Assembly: GCA_900316845.1 (NCBI GenBank)
Contig: ONEG01000006.1
Span: 424-64,423, forward strand
DNA length: 64,000 nt
Direction of reading: 5' to 3'
Source of the DNA: an uncultured Bacteroidales bacterium
Lineage (GTDB): Bacteria > Bacteroidota > Bacteroidia > Bacteroidales > Paludibacteraceae
Shown here: positions 25,952-49,146 of the stretch, one piece after another
How positions within the stretch are numbered: position 1 is the stretch's first letter
How the letters are laid out: each line of letters opens with the position of its first letter
Notes under the pieces: generated by a model
The model's input: the letters and a program-made list of their open reading frames with translations, nothing else
Told to the model about the DNA's origin: nothing
Database searches by the model: none
Program-made: the position numbers and the translations under genes

Positions 25952-25977
25952 ACTTATGCGCGTTTAAAATTTTTTTT

Positions 25978-26049
25978 CGGCAAAGGTAATACTTTATTTT
26001 GGGATTAAAAAATAGAAGTTCTTATTAGCCCTAATTAGCCCAATAAAAG
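25978..26049. repeat. cassette junction/promoter element, copy A (contains GCCCTAATTAGCCC)
   Basis: Reads cggcaaaggtaatactttattttgggattaaaaaatagaagttcttattagccctaattagccc. It is homologous to copies at 31392 and 42281. A perfect 16-bp inverted repeat pairs 26005..26020 with 26072..26087. Confidence 0.85.
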
Positions 26050-26153
26050 TTATTTTTTTTCATTTTTTATTAACTTCTATTTTTTAATTTAAAACCTTTT
26101 TATTACTTTTGCGGCGAAAATTCAGTTTTACAATTTAAAATCAGGAGGTAGAT

Positions 26154-26588
26154 ATGGAAAAGAAATTCAGTGAATGGTTAGCAGAAAATTACGGCAAGAC
26201 GGTCACCAAGTCTTTAAAAGGTTCTCAAAAGTGCTTTGAGTCCTTGTCCGCCGATGAGGATCTGAATGACATGTGTCTCATGGAACTGATGGAGCACATG
26301 GCGAACATGGCGGAAAATAACGGCTCTCCAAGACAACAAATCAAGCGCCCAATCATGGCCTTCTACGCCACCGAATTAGGTAATCGGTTGGACATCACTC
26401 CGTTGCAGGTATTCTTGCTCGCGGAGTTTGTAGACCAGTTTCCCGACGATAGTATTGAGACGAAGCAACTGGCAAAGAACCTCGGTTGCAGCAATCTTTC
26501 CATCATGTCATGTTATCAGGATATTGCCGTCCTGCGCGATAAGAAGTATCTCTCCGAGCGCAGATATAATAAAAACAAAGTGGTGTGA
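26154..26588 (+). CDS. N-terminal (winged-helix-like) fragment, possibly the 5' part of the downstream AAA+ ATPase gene
   Basis: Has a TACTTTTG box at 26104..26111 and an AGGAGG 5 nt upstream of the ATG. It ends at a TGA that is in frame with the next ORF. Confidence 0.55.
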   Translation: MEKKFSEWLAENYGKTVTKSLKGSQKCFESLSADEDLNDMCLMELMEHMANMAENNGSPRQQIKRPIMAFYATELGNRLDITPLQVFLLAEFVDQFPDDSIETKQLAKNLGCSNLSIMSCYQDIAVLRDKKYLSERRYNKNKVV

Positions 26589-26660
26589 TACCAGATCCCT
26601 ATCCGTGTCATTACTGCGTTTCAGGCAAACCAAAATGTAGAGCCTTTGGACTATAGCAAT

Positions 26661-27899
26661 ATGAACGGAGATCAGCTGATGGACGAGCTTTTCCAAGTGA
26701 TATCCTCCTATCGGAGTGATGACATCGATATACACGAAGCCTACGAAACCACTTCTGCTATGATTGCAGCCAATATGCAGCTTGGTTTCTGCCGCCAAAT
26801 AAACGAATACTCCCTTTCCAAAGAGAGTTGGATAATTCTTGTCTATGTCTGCACGGGTTACTATTACAGCCCGAAATTTACGATGGATAGTGATGAGTTC
26901 CGGGAGTTTTTTGATATGCGTTGCGGTCTTTCGCAGCTGCGACTTTTCCGCAGTAACAAGCACGAACTGCTCACAAAATCGATTCTAGAACCCGCCGGAG
27001 GAGAACTGGCTAATGCGAATGAGTGGTGCCTTTCACGCCGCGCAGCCAACGATCTGATGAGCGAACTGTGTCCTGTTACGGCGAAAAGCACCAAACAAGG
27101 CGTGATTGATGCGGAAAGTATCGGCAAGAAGGCTCTGTTCTACCCGACAAAGACCACCAGACAGGTTTCTGAGTTGGAGAGTTTGCTCTCGACGGAGAAG
27201 TTCCAACAAGTGCAGGAGAGCTTGGAGGCGCATGGTATGCGCAAAGGTTTCGCGTGCCTTTTCTATGGTACGCCCGGAACAGGAAAGACCGAGACCGTTC
27301 TGCAAATAGCCCGAAAAACGGGCCGCGATATCATGCAGGTAGATATGTCGCAGATGCGCGACAAGTACGTCGGTGAAAGCGAGAAGAACGTGAAGCAGAT
27401 CTTCACGCGTTACCGCCGGATTTGCAAAGAGAGTGATCAGACGCCTATTCTCCTCCTCAATGAAGCGGACGCCCTGCTCGGCGTGCGTATGACGAATGTG
27501 GAGCACTCGGTGGATCAGATGGAGAACACGATGCAGAATATCCTGTTGCAGGAAATGGAGAACTTCGACGGCATCCTGATTGCGACAACCAACCTTACGC
27601 AGAATCTGGATGGAGCGTTCGACCGTCGGTTCCTCTACAAAGTAGAGTTCCTCAAACCCACACCGGAGGAGAGCCGGCATATCTGGCAAGCCATGTTGCC
27701 GGAAATCAGCGAAGAGGATGCTTGGACACTCGCGAAGCAGTATGCTTTCTCCGGCGGCCAGATTGAAAATATTGCCCGCAAACAGATAGTGAACTCTATC
27801 CTCTTTCCTGAGGAAGGCAGAGATCTGAACAAAATCCGCCAGGCTTGTGACAGCGAGTATCTGAACAAAAAACAAACCCGCCCCATCGGCTTTTGCTGA
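26661..27899 (+). CDS. AAA+ ATPase (classic AAA clade)
   Basis: Walker A FYGTPGTGKTE, Walker B ILLLNEADAL, and a second region of homology ending FDRRF. The frame is open back to the TGA at 26586 (TTG at 26646, ATG at 26661). Confidence 0.8.
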   Translation: MNGDQLMDELFQVISSYRSDDIDIHEAYETTSAMIAANMQLGFCRQINEYSLSKESWIILVYVCTGYYYSPKFTMDSDEFREFFDMRCGLSQLRLFRSNKHELLTKSILEPAGGELANANEWCLSRRAANDLMSELCPVTAKSTKQGVIDAESIGKKALFYPTKTTRQVSELESLLSTEKFQQVQESLEAHGMRKGFACLFYGTPGTGKTETVLQIARKTGRDIMQVDMSQMRDKYVGESEKNVKQIFTRYRRICKESDQTPILLLNEADALLGVRMTNVEHSVDQMENTMQNILLQEMENFDGILIATTNLTQNLDGAFDRRFLYKVEFLKPTPEESRHIWQAMLPEISEEDAWTLAKQYAFSGGQIENIARKQIVNSILFPEEGRDLNKIRQACDSEYLNKKQTRPIGFC

Positions 27900-31325: not shown

Positions 31326-31391
31326 ATGCTATTAAATTTTTAAAGTTTCGCCCCCTTCTTTGTTCGGCATTGGGGCACTTTCCGATTTTGC

Positions 31392-31477
31392 GCGGCAAAG
31401 ATAATACTTTATTTTCAAATAAAAAAATAGAAGTTAATCTTTTTTGCAATAAGCCCTAATTAGCCATAAAGGTATTA
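31392..31477. repeat. cassette junction/promoter element, copy B
   Basis: Reads gcggcaaagataatactttattttcaaataaaaaaatagaagttaatcttttttgcaataagccctaattagccataaaggtatta. The -7 box TATCTTTG is the complement of 31396..31403. Confidence 0.9.
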
Positions 31478-33024: not shown

Positions 33025-33062
33025 TTTTTTGCAATTCACCCTAATTAGCCATAAAGGCATTA
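33025..33062. repeat. cassette junction element, partial copy D (direct repeat of 31440..31477)
   Basis: ttttttgcaattcaccctaattagccataaaggcatta matches ttttttgcaataagccctaattagccataaaggtatta at 34 of 38 positions. Confidence 0.9.
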
Positions 33063-33709: not shown

Positions 33710-35590
33710 TTATTTTGATACTCTGTATAATTCCTTCAAAATAACCACCATTGACCAGGTGTCGAGTGCGCAGTATTGGAGCAAGTCTTTGCGTGTTTGT
33801 GCTTCTTTTTCGGGAGACATGTCCTTCATCTTCGGGAAGATCTCCATCGCCTCACCGCCGTTATGCACACAGCCCGGCAATTTGTGATAATTGAGTGTCG
33901 GGTCATCGGGGAATAACGCCGGCAGCACTTTTTTGATGCTGAACGAACCATCCATCGCAGGGCGATAGTAAGCGCCATCGCGGAAGGGATCCAACAGATC
34001 TACGATGTTCTCACGAATCGCCAGTAGATGGTTGCTCAAATCAGGGAAAGCCTTTGCCATCTCTTTGAGACGCGATTTCTCAAAATTATCATTAAATACC
34101 ATAACGGTGACATCCATCGGGATATCTTTGCAGAGCTGCTCTGCTACTTCACGCATCGGATTCGCGCTATGCGCATCGGCGAGGAACTCGAAGTGCTCAC
34201 ATGTGTCGAATTCAGAATGCTGAATATGGAGCGAATACTGCGTAGGAATCTGCTGATAAGGATGCGTACCTTGATATTCAGGAATAGTAGGCTGGATGGT
34301 CTCGAAATCCAAGTGATAGATCGGATATTTTAGCCCCGCCAAGAACGCACGTATCTTCGCTTTGTCGATGATATCAACATTATGCAACGTGCTTTCTATT
34401 TGGATTCGCTGAATCTCATTTTGCTTGTTCTCTTTATTACAAAATTCCTTGTCTGCAAGTATATCCTCAAAAGAAGCTACACCTCTTTTGAAACACTTCA
34501 GCGCCGTTCTCCATTGCATTCCATACAAGTCAAATACACTCGGCGTAGGAACGTGATGCTGCTCCATGCAATAAGCCTTGAACGGGCAGGGATATGGTTT
34601 GTTGCAACCATTATTGAGGTCAGCAGATTCATACGCGAGTATAAGTTCCCTTTTTGCCAATTCAACAGAATCTGCCATCTTGGGAGATTCTGCATCTACC
34701 AATTTGGCCATATCATAGATATTGAACAGTTGCTTTATGTCCAAATCGCCGTCCAGGATATAGTGCTTATCCAACTGCATTAGGTATGTGCCGGTTACAT
34801 CAATGCCACATTTCTTCAACACGTATTTCTGGAAAGAGACATCCCAGATGTAAACCTCATCGGGCTTCTTTTCTTTTTTCTTTTTGGTTTCGTTCTCATC
34901 ATCAAGGTCAGACTCATAATCCTTTGCGGTAGAACTCTTTACCTCATAAATCGCCCATCCGCCTTTCTCGCGATGCAGCAGATCCACGGCACAATAACAG
35001 CCGTTTGCCTCAAACGCCGCTTCGCAGATGGTCTCAACCGAAGGATCAGCCATCAAGCGTTGCGTCTCTTCGAGCATAGCTGCGATATCCAAACTGCCAT
35101 CCGCCCTGCGCTTGGTTGCTTCGTGGTAGGTACCGAAATAGGTTTTCGCGAGATTACCTACTTCTATTCCGGCTTTGATGCGTGATTCCGGAATAGCTTC
35201 CTCAACAGCCTCTTCCGGCTTATTGATTTTCATCCACAAGCATTTCGGGCATTGCCGAAAGGCGGTGTAACGGGATTTGGTTAAGAGGATGGGCTCCGGT
35301 CTCGGCTTTTCAATTGGGTGGTCAAGATCTATCCAAAGTACATCAGCTTCTTGAAGAATAAAGCCGTTCCAAAATTCATACTTGAAATCGTATTCCTGCG
35401 TGAGTGTTTCCTGAAGCCATTGGTTCCAACCTTCTTCGTTGTCGGCATCCTCGGGATATTCTTCCAAGAACTCCTTACGCGCAGCATCTACCGCTTTGCG
35501 GTATTCTGCATATTCTTTCTCATCCAGTTCTATCTCCCATGTATCATACACTTCGGGATAGAATACTTTTGCTTTATAATATGTAGCCAT
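33710..35590 (-). CDS. DUF2779-like protein: Cas4/RecB-type PD-(D/E)xK nuclease with Cys cluster fused to a DEDD-type exonuclease-like domain
   Basis: Contains CPKCLW, then D...IYEVKSS (D/ExK), CNKPYPCPFKAYC, YHLDFETI (Exo I-like DxE), NDNFEKSRL and YCALDTW. Assignments are by motif only. Confidence 0.65.
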   Translation of the reverse strand: MATYYKAKVFYPEVYDTWEIELDEKEYAEYRKAVDAARKEFLEEYPEDADNEEGWNQWLQETLTQEYDFKYEFWNGFILQEADVLWIDLDHPIEKPRPEPILLTKSRYTAFRQCPKCLWMKINKPEEAVEEAIPESRIKAGIEVGNLAKTYFGTYHEATKRRADGSLDIAAMLEETQRLMADPSVETICEAAFEANGCYCAVDLLHREKGGWAIYEVKSSTAKDYESDLDDENETKKKKEKKPDEVYIWDVSFQKYVLKKCGIDVTGTYLMQLDKHYILDGDLDIKQLFNIYDMAKLVDAESPKMADSVELAKRELILAYESADLNNGCNKPYPCPFKAYCMEQHHVPTPSVFDLYGMQWRTALKCFKRGVASFEDILADKEFCNKENKQNEIQRIQIESTLHNVDIIDKAKIRAFLAGLKYPIYHLDFETIQPTIPEYQGTHPYQQIPTQYSLHIQHSEFDTCEHFEFLADAHSANPMREVAEQLCKDIPMDVTVMVFNDNFEKSRLKEMAKAFPDLSNHLLAIRENIVDLLDPFRDGAYYRPAMDGSFSIKKVLPALFPDDPTLNYHKLPGCVHNGGEAMEIFPKMKDMSPEKEAQTRKDLLQYCALDTWSMVVILKELYRVSK

Positions 35591-35681
35591 AGTTAGAAAT
35601 TATTTATTGCCCAAAGGTGGGGTAATGGAATTTGGGTAAGAGATAGGGCGTAGCATTAAAAGTATTAACTATTTAAAGTTG

Positions 35682-37973
35682 TTATTTCATTATATGCAAG
35701 GATTGCAATTTCTCTATTATCGCCTCATCAGCCAACACTTGTTGAGAGCAGTTTTTATCTGAGTATAAATATTTTCCCCCATTAGTAAGACCTATACAAA
35801 TATTATTAGTAGAAATTGATAGAGTATTAGAGTTGCCATTCTCTGGATACCAATCTAATATAATTGCTTTGTCTTGATCTATTTGCGACCACAAATATGC
35901 CAAGAATATTTCCCGATGTTGAGTATCTGATTGTAGTTTCTGACGAAGGAACATATGTTCTGTATTCGTATCATACCAAAGTTTCGAGTTGGATGCAAAC
36001 TCAAGTATTGATGGATTTCGAACTATATGTTTTCTCCAATCTTGAGGTTCAAATCGTTTTCTTAATTCTTCAAAAAGTTCATCAAATGTAACACAATCTG
36101 CAAATTCTGCATACCACAAATCTATGAGTTTCTTAATAACTTCTCCATAACTTGATTCCTGTGAGCGAAGGAAATTTTTGAAACTGCGGTCGCGATTGAA
36201 ATAATTTTCGCACAAATATAAATCTTCGGCACTCTTTTTCCAGTTTCCATAATTTTCCACACATAGCAAAGCCGCCCTTAATTTATATTCGTCAGAGATA
36301 GGAAATATTTTTTGAAGTTTCTCTGCATATGACTTAAATAATGCGAAAACAGGTTTTCCACTCGGTTGCATTGACCATTGAAGTGGAGCTATAATCTGCC
36401 CCCATAGATATGTATTATTTTCCAAATTTTCAATTTCTTCAAGCCAATTAGAGTCTGCCAATTGAACACTGGATTTAATTCGTTCTTCTTCTAACGACAC
36501 ATTGGCCAATCCCGAAATATTATCTAAATTGGATAAGAATTCACGCATGGAACTATTTTGAGTTCTATACTTTTTCCAGATATTTTCTATAGCCTCAATA
36601 GCTTTTCTTTCCTTTTCTGATTTATCAATTTGTTGCTGCGTGTTTCTTAACAAAACTGTATTACGGATAAAACGCATCCAATCATTAAATTCTTTAATAA
36701 GTTCATCCTTATTTAAAAGTTCTGTAGCAGAATACGTGCGCAAAAACAATATCATTGCAAAAAAGGCAACTTGTAAATCTTTTTCTGGATCTTTAAGATA
36801 TTCATCCCATAAAGACTTCTCCGGTAGCCATAGTATATTTAAAAAATCAGAAGCATTATGTATTTGCCCACCGTCAATGTAAAACAAGTTGTTGATATCT
36901 GTGATTAAACTTTCAAAATCAAGTTTCTCTGGAAAATTCACTTTGCGCTCAATAGTTCTTCGTTTCCATGCCAAATCACAATACATGGGTAAAACATTTT
37001 CAAAATCTAACTGCTTACCAATCATCCATAGTTCATAATCAACATCAACTCGGTTATAGAATTGAACACATATTATCCGTTGAATGAGTCGTTTTAACTG
37101 CATTTCAACTTTTCCCTCTACATCGTCATATGCTATATTTGGAATATCATTGATGTTTTTGTCTTTGCAATAATTCTGCCAAAAATAATTTATCCAAAGA
37201 CCATCTATTTGCGTTCTCCATTGCTTTTCTGTCTCACTTCCAGATAGACCTTGTATTTGCATTTCCTCTTCTAGCACCGATTTCATGATGTCAAAAGATG
37301 ATAATTGCTTTCCACGTGCATTCATCTTGACATATAATTCATCTCCCATATCAAACTCATCTAGATTAAGTAGATGAAATGATATGTTCTTCAAATTCTC
37401 ATAATGAGGGTCTTGATACTTGTTTTGGATTATTAAATTGTCAATTTCTTCAATAACCACCAACATTGATAATATACTTGGATCATACCGCCACTGCCAT
37501 TTAAACCACCCCTCCTTCATAAGGAAGAGTGATAAGGGCAACTCCTCTTTCTGTTTACAATAAGCACTCTTTTTTTTACATATTTCACTGGCGGAATGAC
37601 AAACTAACTCGTTGCAAAAATCAATAGTTGATTGTCTTGTTGCATATGAAAGAACTGCTTTTCCGTTCAATATCAAATCATTTTTAAAATTTTCAGGACA
37701 AAAAAACCAGTGCAATAAGAATAACGTGGTTAATCGTTGTTGACCATCAAGAGGTTCAAATGCGCCGTCTCTGTCATAACCATACACAAAATCCAAATGC
37801 AATCTATCTCCAGAAGGCGAATAAATCACTTTTAGTAAATCATTTAAAAATAATCTGCGAATCTCATTAACGCGAGTGGTTCTTCTGCCTTCGGCATAAT
37901 CTCGTTGGATTCCTGGGACTCTAATCATTTTATTCTTACACAAAGTAAGAAAGTTTTTTTCAAAAGTAACCAT
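35682..37973 (-). CDS. DUF262 (ParB/GmrS-like NTPase) protein with a long C-terminal region and no recognisable His-Me finger
   Basis: Contains IRVPGIQRDYAEG, LDGQQRLTTLFLL and MNARGKQLSSFDIMK. Its ATG overlaps the upstream stop (TAATG). Confidence 0.8.
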   Translation of the reverse strand: MVTFEKNFLTLCKNKMIRVPGIQRDYAEGRRTTRVNEIRRLFLNDLLKVIYSPSGDRLHLDFVYGYDRDGAFEPLDGQQRLTTLFLLHWFFCPENFKNDLILNGKAVLSYATRQSTIDFCNELVCHSASEICKKKSAYCKQKEELPLSLFLMKEGWFKWQWRYDPSILSMLVVIEEIDNLIIQNKYQDPHYENLKNISFHLLNLDEFDMGDELYVKMNARGKQLSSFDIMKSVLEEEMQIQGLSGSETEKQWRTQIDGLWINYFWQNYCKDKNINDIPNIAYDDVEGKVEMQLKRLIQRIICVQFYNRVDVDYELWMIGKQLDFENVLPMYCDLAWKRRTIERKVNFPEKLDFESLITDINNLFYIDGGQIHNASDFLNILWLPEKSLWDEYLKDPEKDLQVAFFAMILFLRTYSATELLNKDELIKEFNDWMRFIRNTVLLRNTQQQIDKSEKERKAIEAIENIWKKYRTQNSSMREFLSNLDNISGLANVSLEEERIKSSVQLADSNWLEEIENLENNTYLWGQIIAPLQWSMQPSGKPVFALFKSYAEKLQKIFPISDEYKLRAALLCVENYGNWKKSAEDLYLCENYFNRDRSFKNFLRSQESSYGEVIKKLIDLWYAEFADCVTFDELFEELRKRFEPQDWRKHIVRNPSILEFASNSKLWYDTNTEHMFLRQKLQSDTQHREIFLAYLWSQIDQDKAIILDWYPENGNSNTLSISTNNICIGLTNGGKYLYSDKNCSQQVLADEAIIEKLQSLHIMK

Positions 37974-39775
37974 TATAGATAGAATTTAAGGGTTTCAAAT
38001 AATTGTTCCTTATATGCTTGCCTATCAGTTTCATTCCACCGTATTATATCTAATTGGGAAGAACCCCTTTTAGCGCCCGTGTAGTATTTTAAAAACAAAT
38101 TACGAGTACATAGTGGAATAAATACACCGTTTTTATCATTTTGAATAATTATTGAGCGTTTACATGAGAAAGGTGCATTTTTATAACTACGATTAATACC
38201 ACAATTTAATAATGCCAAATTATCTATTGTATCTTTTTCTTCTCCAATAATATTGCTGTTATAGTATTTATATACTGCATCATAGAAATCCTTGAATACG
38301 TTATTTGAATCCTGATTCTCGGTTTTAAATTTATCGAGCAATTCTTTTCCTTGTTTCATTAACTGCTTAGCTTGTTCCATTGGATCGTATTGCAATTGCT
38401 CTATTACCAAATTTATCCATTCAATTTTATGTTTCAACTCTTGCATATTATTATCTTTCTGGGAGTCGACATGCTCCACATCCCATTCCTTCTTCTTAAA
38501 CTGTTCAAATGGAAATTTAAGATTGGATTTATTATACGACTCTATATTAAACAATAAAAGCATTTCTCTTATTTTGCTTAAATCAGTAGAATATTCCCAT
38601 TCCTCAAAAGGACGTTTCGTTTCTATACAATATTTAGAGCAATTTATTTTGCTTTTTATTAATTCTTGTAAAGATTTTATTAATAGATCTTCATCCATTT
38701 GAACTGCAGTTTTGTATACGCCTGCCTTAATATGTTGGGGCAACATTCCTTTCCATACTAAATATCCTACGTAATTATAGATACGGTTATCTTCATACCA
38801 ACGAAGAAACATATCATAAACTTTTTTTACTTCTTCCCATATATGCTCAAAACTATTAGAGGCGTTATCATATTTCTTTTGAAAAAATCTATATGCCTCC
38901 AGAGGGTCAGTCTTTTGATAATCAACATCAGCCACATAATCAAATAACACATCCATCCGAGTTCCTACATTTTCTCTTCTGTCACTAATAAAATACCAAA
39001 AATCATCTTTCTCAAATTGCTTCTCCATTATGTCCCATTCCATACTGAATCTATCCACATTTAATTGATTGTTATTAGGAGTTGTGGATTTAAATTTAAT
39101 ATAGAAAAGTGCTTTTATAAGTTCAGAACTAGTTAATGAAATCTTACCCTTGTTAAGTCGGTTGAAAACTTTGATTGCACTCAGATCTGAAACTATGGCA
39201 TCTTTATTTTCCTCTGAAACCACATACCATATAAACTTTACTTTTTTCTCATTGTCTCTATAAAATAATGCCTCTGCCATATTCCGTAAGGCGCGTTTAT
39301 AATCTTTTTTCTCTTCGCACCATTGAATAATCTTTTGTTGTGCTTTCATTAGATAGAAACTATCTATATTATCAAAGGGGCACAATGAATCAAAGTTAGG
39401 CGTAACACGTTCTATATAATTGACGGTATATAACTGGAAGTCCTCTGCCTCTTCTTTATTAAAACGTTTGATAAATTGTTTTAAAATCAACAACATTGTG
39501 GTAAGACGTTGTTGTCCGTCTAATACTTCCCATTCATTTTTATTTTGCCCTCTACGCACAACTAATGGCTGAAGGAAATATGATTCTTCTTTGTTATCTT
39601 GAGATACAAAATTATAAATATCATCTAACATATCAATAACATGTTTTTCTTCCCATCTATATCCTCTTTGAAAAGAGGGTATTTGGAAGACATAAGGTGC
39701 CTGTTGACCTTGCAATAGAAATGCTACTGGCAGTGTATCAAAGTCCTGTAGCGTGTCTTTTAATAAATCATTCAT
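37973..39775 (-). CDS. GmrSD-family DUF262 + DUF1524 (HNH/His-Me finger) protein
   Basis: Contains IPSFQRGYRWE, LDGQQRLTTMLLIL and FNRLNKGKISLTSSELIK. The C-terminal nuclease motifs are WDVEHVDSQ and IDNLALLNCGINRSYKN. Confidence 0.85.
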   Translation of the reverse strand: MNDLLKDTLQDFDTLPVAFLLQGQQAPYVFQIPSFQRGYRWEEKHVIDMLDDIYNFVSQDNKEESYFLQPLVVRRGQNKNEWEVLDGQQRLTTMLLILKQFIKRFNKEEAEDFQLYTVNYIERVTPNFDSLCPFDNIDSFYLMKAQQKIIQWCEEKKDYKRALRNMAEALFYRDNEKKVKFIWYVVSEENKDAIVSDLSAIKVFNRLNKGKISLTSSELIKALFYIKFKSTTPNNNQLNVDRFSMEWDIMEKQFEKDDFWYFISDRRENVGTRMDVLFDYVADVDYQKTDPLEAYRFFQKKYDNASNSFEHIWEEVKKVYDMFLRWYEDNRIYNYVGYLVWKGMLPQHIKAGVYKTAVQMDEDLLIKSLQELIKSKINCSKYCIETKRPFEEWEYSTDLSKIREMLLLFNIESYNKSNLKFPFEQFKKKEWDVEHVDSQKDNNMQELKHKIEWINLVIEQLQYDPMEQAKQLMKQGKELLDKFKTENQDSNNVFKDFYDAVYKYYNSNIIGEEKDTIDNLALLNCGINRSYKNAPFSCKRSIIIQNDKNGVFIPLCTRNLFLKYYTGAKRGSSQLDIIRWNETDRQAYKEQLFETLKFYL

Positions 39776-42249: not shown

Positions 42250-42280
42250 AAATTTTCTCGTTTAAAATTTTAGTATTCAC

Positions 42281-42360
42281 GCTGCAAAGATAATACTTTA
42301 TTTTCAAATTAAAAAATAGAAGTTATTCTTTTTTTCATTTTGCCATAATTAGCCATAAAG
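42281..42360. repeat. cassette junction/promoter element, copy C
   Basis: Reads gctgcaaagataatactttattttcaaattaaaaaatagaagttattctttttttcattttgccataattagccataaag. By hand alignment it is about 87% identical to copy B. The -7 TATCTTTG is the complement of 42285..42292. Confidence 0.9.
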
Positions 42361-45259: not shown

Positions 45260-45340
45260 GCGACAAAGATACAATAAAAAATCAAAAGACGCAAAGGTTT
45301 GACCCTTTACGCCCTAATTAGCCCCAATTTAACGAGTGAA
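45260..45340. repeat. cassette junction/promoter element, copy E (family 2)
   Basis: Reads gcgacaaagatacaat...cgcaaaggtttgaccctttacgccctaattagccccaatttaacgagtgaa. The 51-nt core at 45290..45340 matches 47181..47231 at 50 of 51 positions. Confidence 0.9.
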
Positions 45341-45400
45341 CGAAACAATCGTTCGAGATAGTTCGAGAAAAGAATTAACGAGTGAATGAATGAGTGAATT
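45331..45400. repeat. ACGA-rich degenerate tandem array
   Basis: Reads aacgagtgaacgaaacaatcgttcgagatagttcgagaaaagaattaacgagtgaatgaatgagtgaatta. Confidence 0.7.
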
Positions 45401-47147: not shown

Positions 47148-47231
47148 GCGAGCGCAAAGATACAACAAAATAACGAAAGGCGCAAAGGTTTGACCCTTTA
47201 CGCCCTAATTAGCCCCATTTTAACGAGTGAA
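47148..47231. repeat. cassette junction/promoter element, copy F (family 2)
   Basis: Reads gcgagcgcaaagatacaac...cgcaaaggtttgaccctttacgccctaattagccccattttaacgagtgaa. The -7 TATCTTTG is the complement of 47155..47162. Confidence 0.9.
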
Positions 47232-47288
47232 GGAATTAACGAATGAACGAATTAACGAATGAACGAATGAACGAATGAACGAATGAAG
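47221..47288. repeat. tandem array of GAATGAAC / AATTAACG units at the right edge of the island
   Basis: Reads taacgagtgaaggaattaacgaatgaacgaattaacgaatgaacgaatgaacgaatgaacgaatgaaggg. Confidence 0.9.
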
Positions 47289-47322: not shown

Positions 47323-48534
47323 TTACTCGGCAAGCGGTTTTTGCTGAATAATCATTGTATCGCCGTTAAGGTTTACATACATTATCGGATAATCTTTATA
47401 GATGATTTCCAAGCGCGGGAGGTCACGGGTATAGGTAACAAGGTATTGCTTTTGCAGTTGTTCCTCATATTGAGGATAGGACTTCGCTAATTTGTCTCGC
47501 GTTTGGTGCATCTGCGTAGCATAGCGATTTGTCATAGTGATGCCTTCATTCATACTCTTTACCGGCATATTCCTGAGCGAATCGGAATAAGTGCGGTACA
47601 AGGCGCTATACTGCCGTTCTGCCCTACTCTTTACATCCAGCCAAACGGAGTCAACAACAGGTTTTGCAGGAACAATAACCACCACTGTGTCGGTCTGTAT
47701 CTCTATTGGTTGCACCGTTTCCTTCGGGCTTGGCAAGAATACTATGACAAATGCCACAATAGCAGCTAACGCAAGAGCCAAAGGCAGTAACCATCTCATC
47801 CGCCAATAGCGGTGAAGCGCAGCACGGACTTGGCGGACGGAAGTGTAACGGCTTCTATCGGAGGCAAGGCAACGACGGATAATTGGTTTAGCCGAATGCG
47901 GGAAAAGAAGTGCCAACATCTTGCCTAAGGCATAGATGTCCCGCTCAGGCAACAAGGTATCGGACGGCAGTTGCTCCGGGACGCTGATTGACGGCGATGT
48001 GCCGATATTCTTAGCTATATAGGCTTCATTATCCGCAAAGCCGAAATCAATCAGCCGCACATGATTGCCGGAGTCGTTAATAAGGATGTTAGAAGGCTTG
48101 AGATCACCGTGGACTATCTGGCGTTCATGGAGGAAAACCAAGGCTTCCATTAATTCGTCCGCTACGCGCCGACGCTCTGTACAGGAGGGCTTTTCTGCTA
48201 TGAATTTATCCAATGGGCGACCATGGATGTATTCCATGAGGATAGCTCGCCCTAACTGCGGATCGTCCACCATGGATATTGTCTGAACCACATAGATTGA
48301 GTCCAGACGGTGCATGATCTCAAACTCACGTTCCAACAGGAGTTGATTGCGAGTCCGTTCGCCTTCGGTGGGCTTGGCAGCCTTCAGAACGACCCATTTG
48401 CCGCCCATTTGCGCACGATAAATCAGATTGTGCCCGGAGTCAGACAACAACTCATAATCCGTAAGGTGATCCACGCCTAATTCTTGCGAACTAAGCGGAC
48501 GGATAGGACCCGATGTGAACGAATTTGTATCCAT
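47323..48534 (-). CDS. serine/threonine protein kinase with TM segment and C-terminal extracytoplasmic domain
   Basis: Catalytic loop HGDLKPSNILI and the DFG motif LIDFGFA. The ATG at 48534 lies downstream of a minus-strand TACTTTTG box. Confidence 0.85.
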   Translation of the reverse strand: MDTNSFTSGPIRPLSSQELGVDHLTDYELLSDSGHNLIYRAQMGGKWVVLKAAKPTEGERTRNQLLLEREFEIMHRLDSIYVVQTISMVDDPQLGRAILMEYIHGRPLDKFIAEKPSCTERRRVADELMEALVFLHERQIVHGDLKPSNILINDSGNHVRLIDFGFADNEAYIAKNIGTSPSISVPEQLPSDTLLPERDIYALGKMLALLFPHSAKPIIRRCLASDRSRYTSVRQVRAALHRYWRMRWLLPLALALAAIVAFVIVFLPSPKETVQPIEIQTDTVVVIVPAKPVVDSVWLDVKSRAERQYSALYRTYSDSLRNMPVKSMNEGITMTNRYATQMHQTRDKLAKSYPQYEEQLQKQYLVTYTRDLPRLEIIYKDYPIMYVNLNGDTMIIQQKPLAE

Positions 48535-48542
48535 TGACGGTG

Positions 48543-48590
48543 CAAAAGTACAAAAAAATTTGCGTATATGCAAATAATTTTATAATTTTG
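48543..48590. promoter_or_regulatory. divergent promoter pair sharing a palindromic -33 region
   Basis: TACTTTTG is the complement of 48543..48550 (kinase). TTTGCGTATATGCAAA lies at 48559..48574 and TAATTTTG at 48583..48590 (gene at 48607). Confidence 0.6.
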
Positions 48591-48606
48591 CACAAATTTT
48601 TGAATT

Positions 48607-49146
48607 ATGGACACATCCTATCCATCCAATAGTATCGCTATCTGCCAACTGAAGAAGGCAGTTGAAGCACGATTCGGACATGTTCCATCCGGCCCCGCCG
48701 ACTTCGGAGAGTTGAGTATCGCTATCTCTAAAACGACCGGTGAACGCATCAGTCCGGACACTCTCAGCCGTATTTGGGGCTACAAAAAAGGCTATTCTTC
48801 CGTGCGGCAGAGCACGGTGCGTGTGTTGGAACAATACGCAAAAGCGAACGAAGAATCGGACTTCGTTCATACAACCGCTATTTATGCCGACGAATGCCAG
48901 AAAGGTGATCGCGTGCGTATTGCATGGCTGCCGGACCGCGTTTGTGTGCTGAGTTATCTGGGGAACTACCGATGGCGATTGGAGGAAGCTATCAACTGCA
49001 AACTGCATGTCGGAGACACATTCTCTTGCCGCACGATAGCAAAATGTGAAATACTGGTAGTGGATCACGTGGAAACGGCAAACGGCTCATATGAATGTTA
49101 CCGCATGGGGAACAAAAACGGGCTCACGATAGTAGAAAAACTATAA
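48607..49146 (+). CDS. hypothetical protein (179 aa)
   Basis: ORF with core-like composition and its own promoter. No motif recognised. Confidence 0.6.
   Translation: MDTSYPSNSIAICQLKKAVEARFGHVPSGPADFGELSIAISKTTGERISPDTLSRIWGYKKGYSSVRQSTVRVLEQYAKANEESDFVHTTAIYADECQKGDRVRIAWLPDRVCVLSYLGNYRWRLEEAINCKLHVGDTFSCRTIAKCEILVVDHVETANGSYECYRMGNKNGLTIVEKL

Follow-up and report, generated by a model that had tools for sequence, protein, structure and literature searches.

We have analysed the product of a DUF2779 gene carried by a 64,000-nucleotide stretch of DNA (hereafter the window) from an uncultured Bacteroidales bacterium of the Paludibacteraceae (assembly GCA_900316845.1, contig ONEG01000006.1, positions 424 to 64,423 of the forward strand). 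The gene is intact, and its product is a DUF2779 family member in which two nuclease domains, one Cas4-like and one a DEDDy-type exonuclease, are joined via a helical linker; in a narrow lineage that includes this allele a separate acidic module of 98 residues has been fused in frame to the front of the protein. Comparison with related loci suggests that DUF2779 is the conserved anchor of a hypervariable defence island on the chromosome, and that the slot upstream of it is taken by one or another unrelated nuclease-type defence gene, depending on the strain. We give a probability of about one half to the reading that the protein is an accessory defence nuclease that would destroy linear or nicked foreign DNA by resecting its ends with opposite polarities, with the module regulating or docking the enzyme. 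The two-nuclease interpretation of DUF2779 proteins is already in the literature (2014 and 2026), and what is new here is the fused module and the pattern of an anchored slot.

Two nuclease domains in a single polypeptide

The open reading frame (ORF) and all six motifs quoted in a first-pass annotation of this DNA are present in the 626-residue translation (Table 1), and the assignment to DUF2779 made there is secure, in that Pfam family PF11074 matches residues 425-551 (window 33938-34318) with 156.5 bits against a cut-off of 23.3 and with profile positions 1-126 covered in full. The NCBIfam UU173 model matches partially, with 53 bits against a cut-off of 225 over residues 354-617. A genome-wide check found this to be the single DUF2779 copy in the source genome. 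Homologues of ~500-535 residues that are 48-81% identical to the protein are collinear with residues ~100-626 (84% of the query), from the LSKSRY..CPK opening to the YCxLDT end. Conservation was scored in two homologue alignments of 120 and 56 sequences, in which D203, E216, K218, C329, C335, C341, D428, E430, N500, F503, E504, Y606, and D610 are invariant or nearly so.

The proposal that a Cas4-type nuclease is fused to a DnaQ-like exonuclease is supported for both folds by Pfam matches of the homologues, by an AlphaFold2 (AF2) model, and by Foldseek comparisons. A Pfam scan of the 56 homologues found Cas_Cas4 (PF01930) in 34 of them (best E 8.5e-6), PDDEXK_1 in five, and weak matches to RNase_H_2 (PF13482) in 13, and the target itself matches the PADLOC Cas4 model (E 2.4e-4). 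The AF2 model of the full protein, built on the 120 sequences, has a mean predicted local distance difference test score (pLDDT) of 86, with both nuclease domains mostly above 90; the domain limits in Table 1 were read off this model. Structure prediction had been suggested as a check of both folds, and Foldseek indeed retrieves Cas4-type structures with the nuclease half (Cas4 Pcal_0546, 4r5q, probability 1.00; SSO0001, 4ic1, 0.97; also MGME1 and Dna2) and DEDD-type structures with the exonuclease half (RICE1 5v5f and Pol III epsilon 2ido, both with probability 1.00; Nibbler and Exo I, 0.94-0.97), the best matches overall having probabilities of 0.85-1.0. Four conserved cysteines, C114 together with C329, C335, and C341, probably hold an iron-sulfur (Fe-S) cluster. 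The last three had been likened to the cysteine cluster of Cas4 and AddB; all three are invariant, and their spacing departs from the canonical form in those proteins, which is C-x2-C-x5-C.

The architecture has precedents. Majorek et al. 2014 (PMC3985635) placed DUF2779 as family F.17 within a 3'-5' exonuclease clade of the RNase H-like superfamily and noted its co-occurrence with the PD-(D/E)XK-like DUF83 domain. A 2026 paper in mSphere (PMC13621843) described MMSYN1_0389 of JCVI-syn3.0 as a fusion of Cas4-like and DEDDh/y domains, with an HHpred E-value of 2e-6 to Cas4, a conserved D/E/K triad, no upstream His ligand in the family, and a Tyr in the Exo III motif, and called the family functionally uncharacterised. 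The protein in the window shares with MMSYN1_0389 and the PF11074 family the same two-domain architecture, the D..ExK triad, the DxE and Y-x3-D motifs, and the missing upstream His ligand, which is replaced by G-x3-G-N-L-A-K; it differs in keeping all four cysteines where MMSYN1_0389 has only two, in having the additional 98-residue N-terminal module, and in being encoded by an accessory, island-borne gene rather than a quasi-essential one.

The resemblance to Cas4 (SSO0001, 4IC1; Pcal_0546, 4R5Q) extends to the PD-(D/E)xK core, the arrangement of one N-terminal and three C-terminal cysteines, and the fold, whereas the C-x5-C-x5-C spacing, the lack of a His ligand, and the fusion to an exonuclease set the protein apart. 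There is no match to Cas1 in the 96.6%-complete source genome and there are no cas genes among the neighbours of the target, and its Cas4-like domain is therefore 'solo' and unlinked to CRISPR adaptation. With the DEDD/DnaQ exonucleases (Pol III epsilon 2IDO, RICE1 5V5F, Nibbler 7JW2) the protein shares the RNase H-like fold and the Exo I, II, and III motifs, but the acidic residue of its Exo II motif is a Glu in an N-x2-F-E context, and the domain is neither free-standing nor part of a polymerase. MrfB (8UN9) is cited among the DEDD/DnaQ-like relatives in PMC13621843. The COG2251/PF13482 proteins (F.13 of Majorek et al. 2014, PMC3985635) likewise pair a DUF83/Cas4-like or RecB-like nuclease with a clade-F, RNase H-like exonuclease, often along with AAA or helicase domains; they form a separate Pfam family, and the target is without an ATPase or helicase domain. 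A purely functional analogy can be drawn to AddAB and RecBCD, which also combine an Fe-S-stapled RecB-type nuclease with both polarities of strand degradation at DNA ends, although the target is a single polypeptide of 626 residues without a helicase motor, and the source genome separately encodes an AddB-like PDDEXK_1 protein of 946 residues.

The N-terminal module

The first 98 residues include 27 Asp and Glu against 10 Lys and Arg, for a pI of 4.2. The first-pass annotation described a unique acidic N-terminus of about 100 residues; it is acidic as stated, but it is not unique, since five other 90%-identity clusters (86-94% identical to the target and 617-626 residues long) bear the same extension, and free-standing and otherwise fused relatives exist. 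Homologues that are at most 80% identical (~500-538 residues) all begin at the LSKSRY..CPK opening and are without the module. Relative to the fused allele at locus L004 (here and below, L-numbers denote relative loci or contigs, P-numbers related proteins, and G-numbers genomes of the order sample), the ratio of nonsynonymous to synonymous substitution rates (dN/dS) has the same value, 0.11, over codons 1-96 and over the remainder; the module is under purifying selection equal to that on the core, and the fusion is real. No in-frame ATG, GTG, or TTG lies between codons 43 and 117, so that the conserved opening and C114 can be obtained only from the upstream ATG, and in this narrow lineage the module has become an obligatory component of the protein.

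Modelled alone with AF2, the module reaches a pLDDT of 84 and is predicted to consist of a beta-hairpin, two helices, and two strands, in that order. Comparison of this fold with PDB and BFVD gave no significant match (best E 1.9 and 0.45, respectively, with probabilities mostly at or below 0.33), and the module matches no Pfam family. With the first 100 residues as query, HMMER retrieved nine proteins from 1.84 billion representatives, and a profile search added more. They include free-standing proteins of 95-97 residues (P0124, P0129, and P0132), forms of 127-177 residues, and proteins of 241-265 residues that carry the module mid-chain. In P0135 (266 residues, 76% identical) the module is joined at the same point, immediately after ...DLDHPIEK, to an unrelated C-terminal region, and its gene lies ~7 kb upstream of a 521-residue DUF2779 gene (L014/L015). 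The gene for P0134 is 2.8 kb upstream of a DUF2779 gene whose product is 74% identical to the target core, the order being module gene, 334-residue gene, PDDEXK_4 gene, and DUF2779. On the evidence of these searches the module is a rare small domain family that occurs free-standing, otherwise fused, or encoded a few kb from DUF2779.

The family is present in only three of the 301 genomes that make up our order-wide sample. In one of these, G090, two tandem module genes of 262-264 residues (G090:C1:1330509-1331803) are situated 540 kb from that genome's DUF2779 gene. A hidden Markov model of the module had no match in L005-L012. The rarity, the null results at these loci, and the distance in G090 rule out the module as a constant companion of DUF2779.

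There are also derivatives in which the fused gene has been damaged. We rejected P0122 (102 residues, L001 86-467) as an independent module gene, as the degraded last 100 nucleotides of a DUF2779 gene follow its stop codon and this tail carries indels and a stop; from its sequence L001 is a remnant of a fused allele with an internal deletion of ~1.5 kb. P0123, a truncated call of 95 residues, ends in the CPKCLWMKIN region translated in the wrong frame, and it appears to be another deletion allele, this one frameshifting, in a record that is nearly identical. Together these indicate that inactivated alleles circulate, which fits a dispensable gene.

A constant gene beside a swapping slot

A related 77-kb contig, L005, is syntenic over the whole island and differs from it cassette by cassette. 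L005 keeps DUF2779 and the 195-residue gene downstream of it and lacks AbiE, and the 9.4 kb upstream of the core that in the window hold three DUF262 genes, a WG-repeat protein gene, and the module are replaced by a 185-residue gene and a PDDEXK_4 gene. PDDEXK_4 (PF14281) genes lie on the same strand and immediately upstream of DUF2779 at four loci, with separations of 2 nt (L004), 25 nt (L005), 15 nt (L008), and 4 nt (L018), and downstream of it in L012; these genes match PDC-S26 of PADLOC, which is listed there as a single-gene candidate. In L010 the upstream position is occupied by two GmrSD_N genes and a Bro-N gene. Seven of seven contexts from the close clade have a PDDEXK_4/PDC-S26 or GmrSD_N neighbour.

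The PDDEXK_4 partners are at most 33% identical to one another and most pairs are not detectably similar, whereas their DUF2779 neighbours are 50-79% identical. The partners have thus diversified to an extreme degree, and it is DUF2779 that stays constant next to a slot whose content is swapped. The same figures led us to reject the simpler idea that PDDEXK_4 and DUF2779 form a co-evolving pair.

Across the order, DUF2779 is found in 40 of the 301 genomes (13%) and in none of the three from the same family (two other species of the genus and one confamilial genome), and the gene is thus accessory in Bacteroidales as sampled here. PDDEXK_4 genes lie within 5 kb of DUF2779 in four genomes (G214, G200, G150, and G261) where ~0.1 would be expected by chance, and GmrSD_N genes within 10 kb in two (G179 and G023) where the expectation is ~0.3. 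The association of DUF2779 with these families is above chance, although the expectations are rough hand estimates and the counts are themselves only rough because the relatives are not independent.

Alleles of the gene also recombine. The stretch that encodes the DEDD domain (gene nucleotides 1186-1635, window 33956-34405) is 99-100% identical to that of L005, an unfused allele, whereas over the 5' part identity drops to 56-83% with L005 and lies at 83-95% with L004, a fused one. The pattern of identity indicates that the window allele is a recombinant that arose by recent intragenic exchange, with the break in the inter-domain linker. The G+C content of the gene is 45.5% (module 42%, core 46%), against 31-34% in the adjacent DUF262 genes, 40.5% in the island, and 51-52% in the backbone. 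The figure of about 50% offered by the first-pass annotation was therefore too high, but the contrast with the DUF262 genes that it drew is real, and the gene also falls below the backbone.

The island extends from ~25.4 to 49 kb and is chromosomal, between housekeeping genes and near dnaA, with an AMP-binding enzyme, an ODP flavoprotein, and DUF1295 in the backbone on one side and FBPase, GroEL, and DnaA on the other. It contains an AAA ATPase, UPF0227, Sel1, and LRR_5 genes, AbiEi and AbiEii, the 195-residue ORF, the target, a GmrSD-like gene paired with a DUF262-only gene, the WG-repeat protein, a HEC-05-type DUF262 gene, and a Ser/Thr kinase. Its description as a defence island with GmrSD-like genes next to the target is well founded: GmrSD_N is matched by three ORFs, PADLOC HEC-05 with E 8.7e-134, AbiEi with E 1.5e-73, and AbiEii with E 8.1e-100, and there are further neighbour matches to HEC-06/Orf5-like models (PADLOC); the defence setting holds in the close clade of the target too. 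The window contains neither a recombinase or integrase nor a tRNA, and we set aside an integrase-borne mobile element as an explanation of the island.

Two neighbours directly flank the target. The 195-residue ORF accompanies DUF2779 in the closest unfused relatives, L005-L007 (92% nucleotide identity), and not in more distant ones. On the other side the target is co-directional with the GmrSD-like and DUF262-only pair across a gap of 91 nt (35591-35681), in which there is no clear Bacteroidota-type -7 box; a sigma-70 promoter and terminator scan is uninformative for a Bacteroidota-type genome. The 600-residue gene of the pair matches GmrSD_N and, weakly, GmrSD_C, and both genes have a G+C content of 31-34%; the pair may be of the GrwAB type. 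The adjacent GmrSD genes look like neighbours rather than partners of DUF2779, because there is a break in G+C content, the pair is absent in relatives, and GrwAB is published as a two-gene system.

Several further observations were made on the island. Short elements of 38-81 nt, up to 90-91% identical to one another, are situated at its cassette boundaries (31391-31471, 42280-42360, 25976-26056, 33025-33062, 45264-45344, and 47155-47235), each with a promoter-like block, GCAAAGATA, and a motif, CCCTAATTAGCC; copies are also present in unrelated metagenome contigs (L002). The shuffling of cassettes relative to L005 may be driven by these elements. The AAA ATPase gene (26154-27899) is split into ORFs of 144 and 417 residues, the syntenic L005 gene (18981-20726) encoding one protein of 581 residues. 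At the FBPase-side edge of the island, 47323-49068 contains the Ser/Thr kinase (416 residues) and a 162-residue ORF with ~86% nucleotide identity to L005; the L005 kinase call is 546 residues long, and the window copy may be truncated.

Table 1. Features of the DUF2779 protein, its gene, and the genes on either side, in window coordinates.
Feature	Position	Strand	Remarks
Whole ORF: N-terminal module, Cas4-like nuclease, helical linker, DEDDy exonuclease	33710..35590	-	626 aa plus stop; open
N-terminal module, aa 1-98	35297..35590	-	Acidic; only in homologues at least 86% identical; fused in frame
Cas4-like PD-(D/E)xK nuclease domain, aa 101-345	34556..35290	-	PF01930 in homologues, PADLOC Cas4, Foldseek
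CPKCLW (aa 114-119), first Cys (C114) of the putative four-Cys cluster	35234..35251	-	C114 at least 90% conserved
CAVDLL...IYEVKSS (aa 200-220), D203/E216/K218 of the PD-(D/E)xK motif	34931..34993	-	Invariant in 120 sequences
Low-complexity acidic, lysine-rich loop DYESDLDDENETKKKKEKKPDE, ~aa 222-242	34865..34927	-	Length varies in homologues (alignment indels); pLDDT below 50 at aa 224-240
CNKPYPCPFKAYC (aa 329-341), C329/C335/C341	34568..34606	-	Spacing C-x5-C-x5-C; all three Cys invariant
Helical inter-domain linker, aa 346-420	34331..34555	-	AF2 model; allele recombination breakpoint in 3' part, ~34405
DEDDy (DnaQ-like, RNase H fold) 3'-5' exonuclease domain, aa 421-626	33713..34330	-	Contains the Pfam DUF2779 match
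Exo I motif YHLDFET (aa 425-431; D428, E430)	34298..34318	-	Invariant
Exo II-like motif NDNFEKSRL (aa 500-508; N500, F503, E504)	34067..34093	-	Glu as acidic residue; invariant or nearly so
Exo III motif YCALDTW (aa 606-612; Y606-x3-D610)	33755..33775	-	DEDDy type; Y606 and D610 invariant in 56 sequences
Downstream ORF, 195 aa	33071..33658	-	No family match
GmrSD-like gene (600 aa) and DUF262-only gene (763 aa), neighbour pair	35682..39775	-	AT-rich; one-base overlap; fills the upstream slot

Plausible roles for the DUF2779 protein

The domain architecture and the setting of the gene suggest several roles to consider, of which we favor that of an accessory defence nuclease. In this scheme the two domains would work with opposite polarity, the Cas4-like one taking 5' single strands or flaps as its substrate and the DEDDy one 3' ends, and between them they could resect and destroy linear or pre-nicked foreign DNA with no need of a helicase. 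Regulation of the nuclease, or its docking to a partner, would then be the most likely task of the N-terminal module.

A number of observations weigh against this interpretation. Members of the family in Mollicutes are quasi-essential or growth-relevant according to published work, which points toward a housekeeping role in DNA metabolism, and, as the first-pass annotation had stated, there is no experimentally defined function for any DUF2779 family member in the literature that we searched. As to the folds, the target itself falls below Pfam reporting for Cas_Cas4 (it has no match at E of 0.1 or less), and the Foldseek whole-chain E-values are modest (1e-3 to 3e-2) because a multi-domain query is compared with single-domain targets. 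A PDB sequence search with the profile of 120 homologues gave no match, and a search with the single sequence returned chance matches only (isochorismate lyase, E 0.03), so that fold comparison and Pfam scans of homologues were required. The C-x5-C-x5-C spacing of the three cysteines is unlike the canonical one, and the upstream His metal ligand (His62 of SSO0001) is absent, the sequence at that position being AGIEVGNLAK. PADLOC-DB 2.0 lacks a DUF2779 model, and the sole match of the target there is the weak one to Cas4. Finally, the neighbourhood survey that had been suggested as a check on the defence-island association gives a divided answer, in that the close clade conforms to it throughout, but among the 39 other DUF2779-bearing genomes of the order sample only six have PDDEXK_4 or GmrSD_N within 10 kb.

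One alternative is that DUF2779 is not autonomous, and is instead a shared downstream helper of whichever nuclease cassette occupies the upstream slot; the upstream enzyme would detect and cut foreign DNA, and DUF2779 would resect the resulting ends and so block their repair. The tight same-strand spacing of the PDDEXK_4 genes in L004, L005, L008, and L018 is what would be expected of such an arrangement, as is the fact that in the close clade the upstream slot is always filled by a nuclease-type defence gene and that DUF2779 is conserved while its partners diverge; in the window itself the target follows the GmrSD pair co-directionally after 91 nt, with no clear -7 box between them. We nonetheless regard this alternative as unlikely. 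The GmrSD pair differs from the target in G+C content (31-34% versus 45.5%) and is absent from relatives, GrwAB is published as comprising two genes and PDC-S26 figures in PADLOC as a single-gene candidate, the order is reversed with DUF2779 first in L012 and G150, and most DUF2779 genes of the order sample have neither family nearby.

The protein could also be a housekeeping or stress-induced repair or recombination nuclease, acting on ends or flaps, whose gene merely sits beside an insertion hotspot for defence cassettes. The family is quasi-essential in JCVI-syn3.0 (PMC13621843), and disruption of the homologue in M. bovis by a transposon impairs growth in cell culture, the gene being listed there beside replication and repair genes. 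Moreover, the structural relatives of the two domains, including Cas4, MGME1, Dna2, and the DnaQ-type proteins, include repair enzymes, and retention of DUF2779 while neighbouring cassettes swap is consistent with a role of this kind. A patchy distribution (13% of the order and none of the three same-family genomes) is not readily reconciled with it, however, and neither is a G+C content below that of the backbone or the recombination and loss of alleles. The genome also already has the AddB-like protein of 946 residues, and we assign this alternative, too, a low probability.

A broader proposal would extend the defence role to the locus as a whole, with the module, the variable upstream nuclease of PDC-S26 or GmrSD type, and DUF2779 together forming a modular defence system in which DUF2779 is the common DNA-destroying effector and the module a regulatory or inhibitory partner. 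As a rule the module would then be a small protein in its own right with its gene close by (L014 and L018 being examples), and the protein in the window would be a 'Rosetta-stone' case in which fusion has locked the two together. We consider this speculative and quite doubtful as it stands. It is highly improbable that the 98 N-terminal residues are an annotation artefact or the onset of pseudogenisation with the functional protein starting downstream, for although most family members (about 500-535 residues) begin at the LSKSRY motif and deletion derivatives of the fused gene exist, the dN/dS of the module equals that of the core, the extension is kept in five other clusters and belongs to a real domain family with a confidently predicted fold, and a shorter product, for want of a start codon between codons 43 and 117, would lose the invariant opening and C114.

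The two-nuclease design of DUF2779, a large and widespread family, has been on record since 2014, and the fused module and the anchored slot are modest leads that leave the basic picture of the family unchanged. The system does offer a contrast in life style, the gene being near-essential in minimal Mycoplasma cells and yet resembling disposable island cargo in Bacteroidales. The constancy of DUF2779 beside a swapping slot points either to a helper function that is shared or to a hotspot for insertions. The fusion of the protein to a rare domain that is sometimes encoded near DUF2779 makes that domain a candidate regulator or partner of this nuclease.

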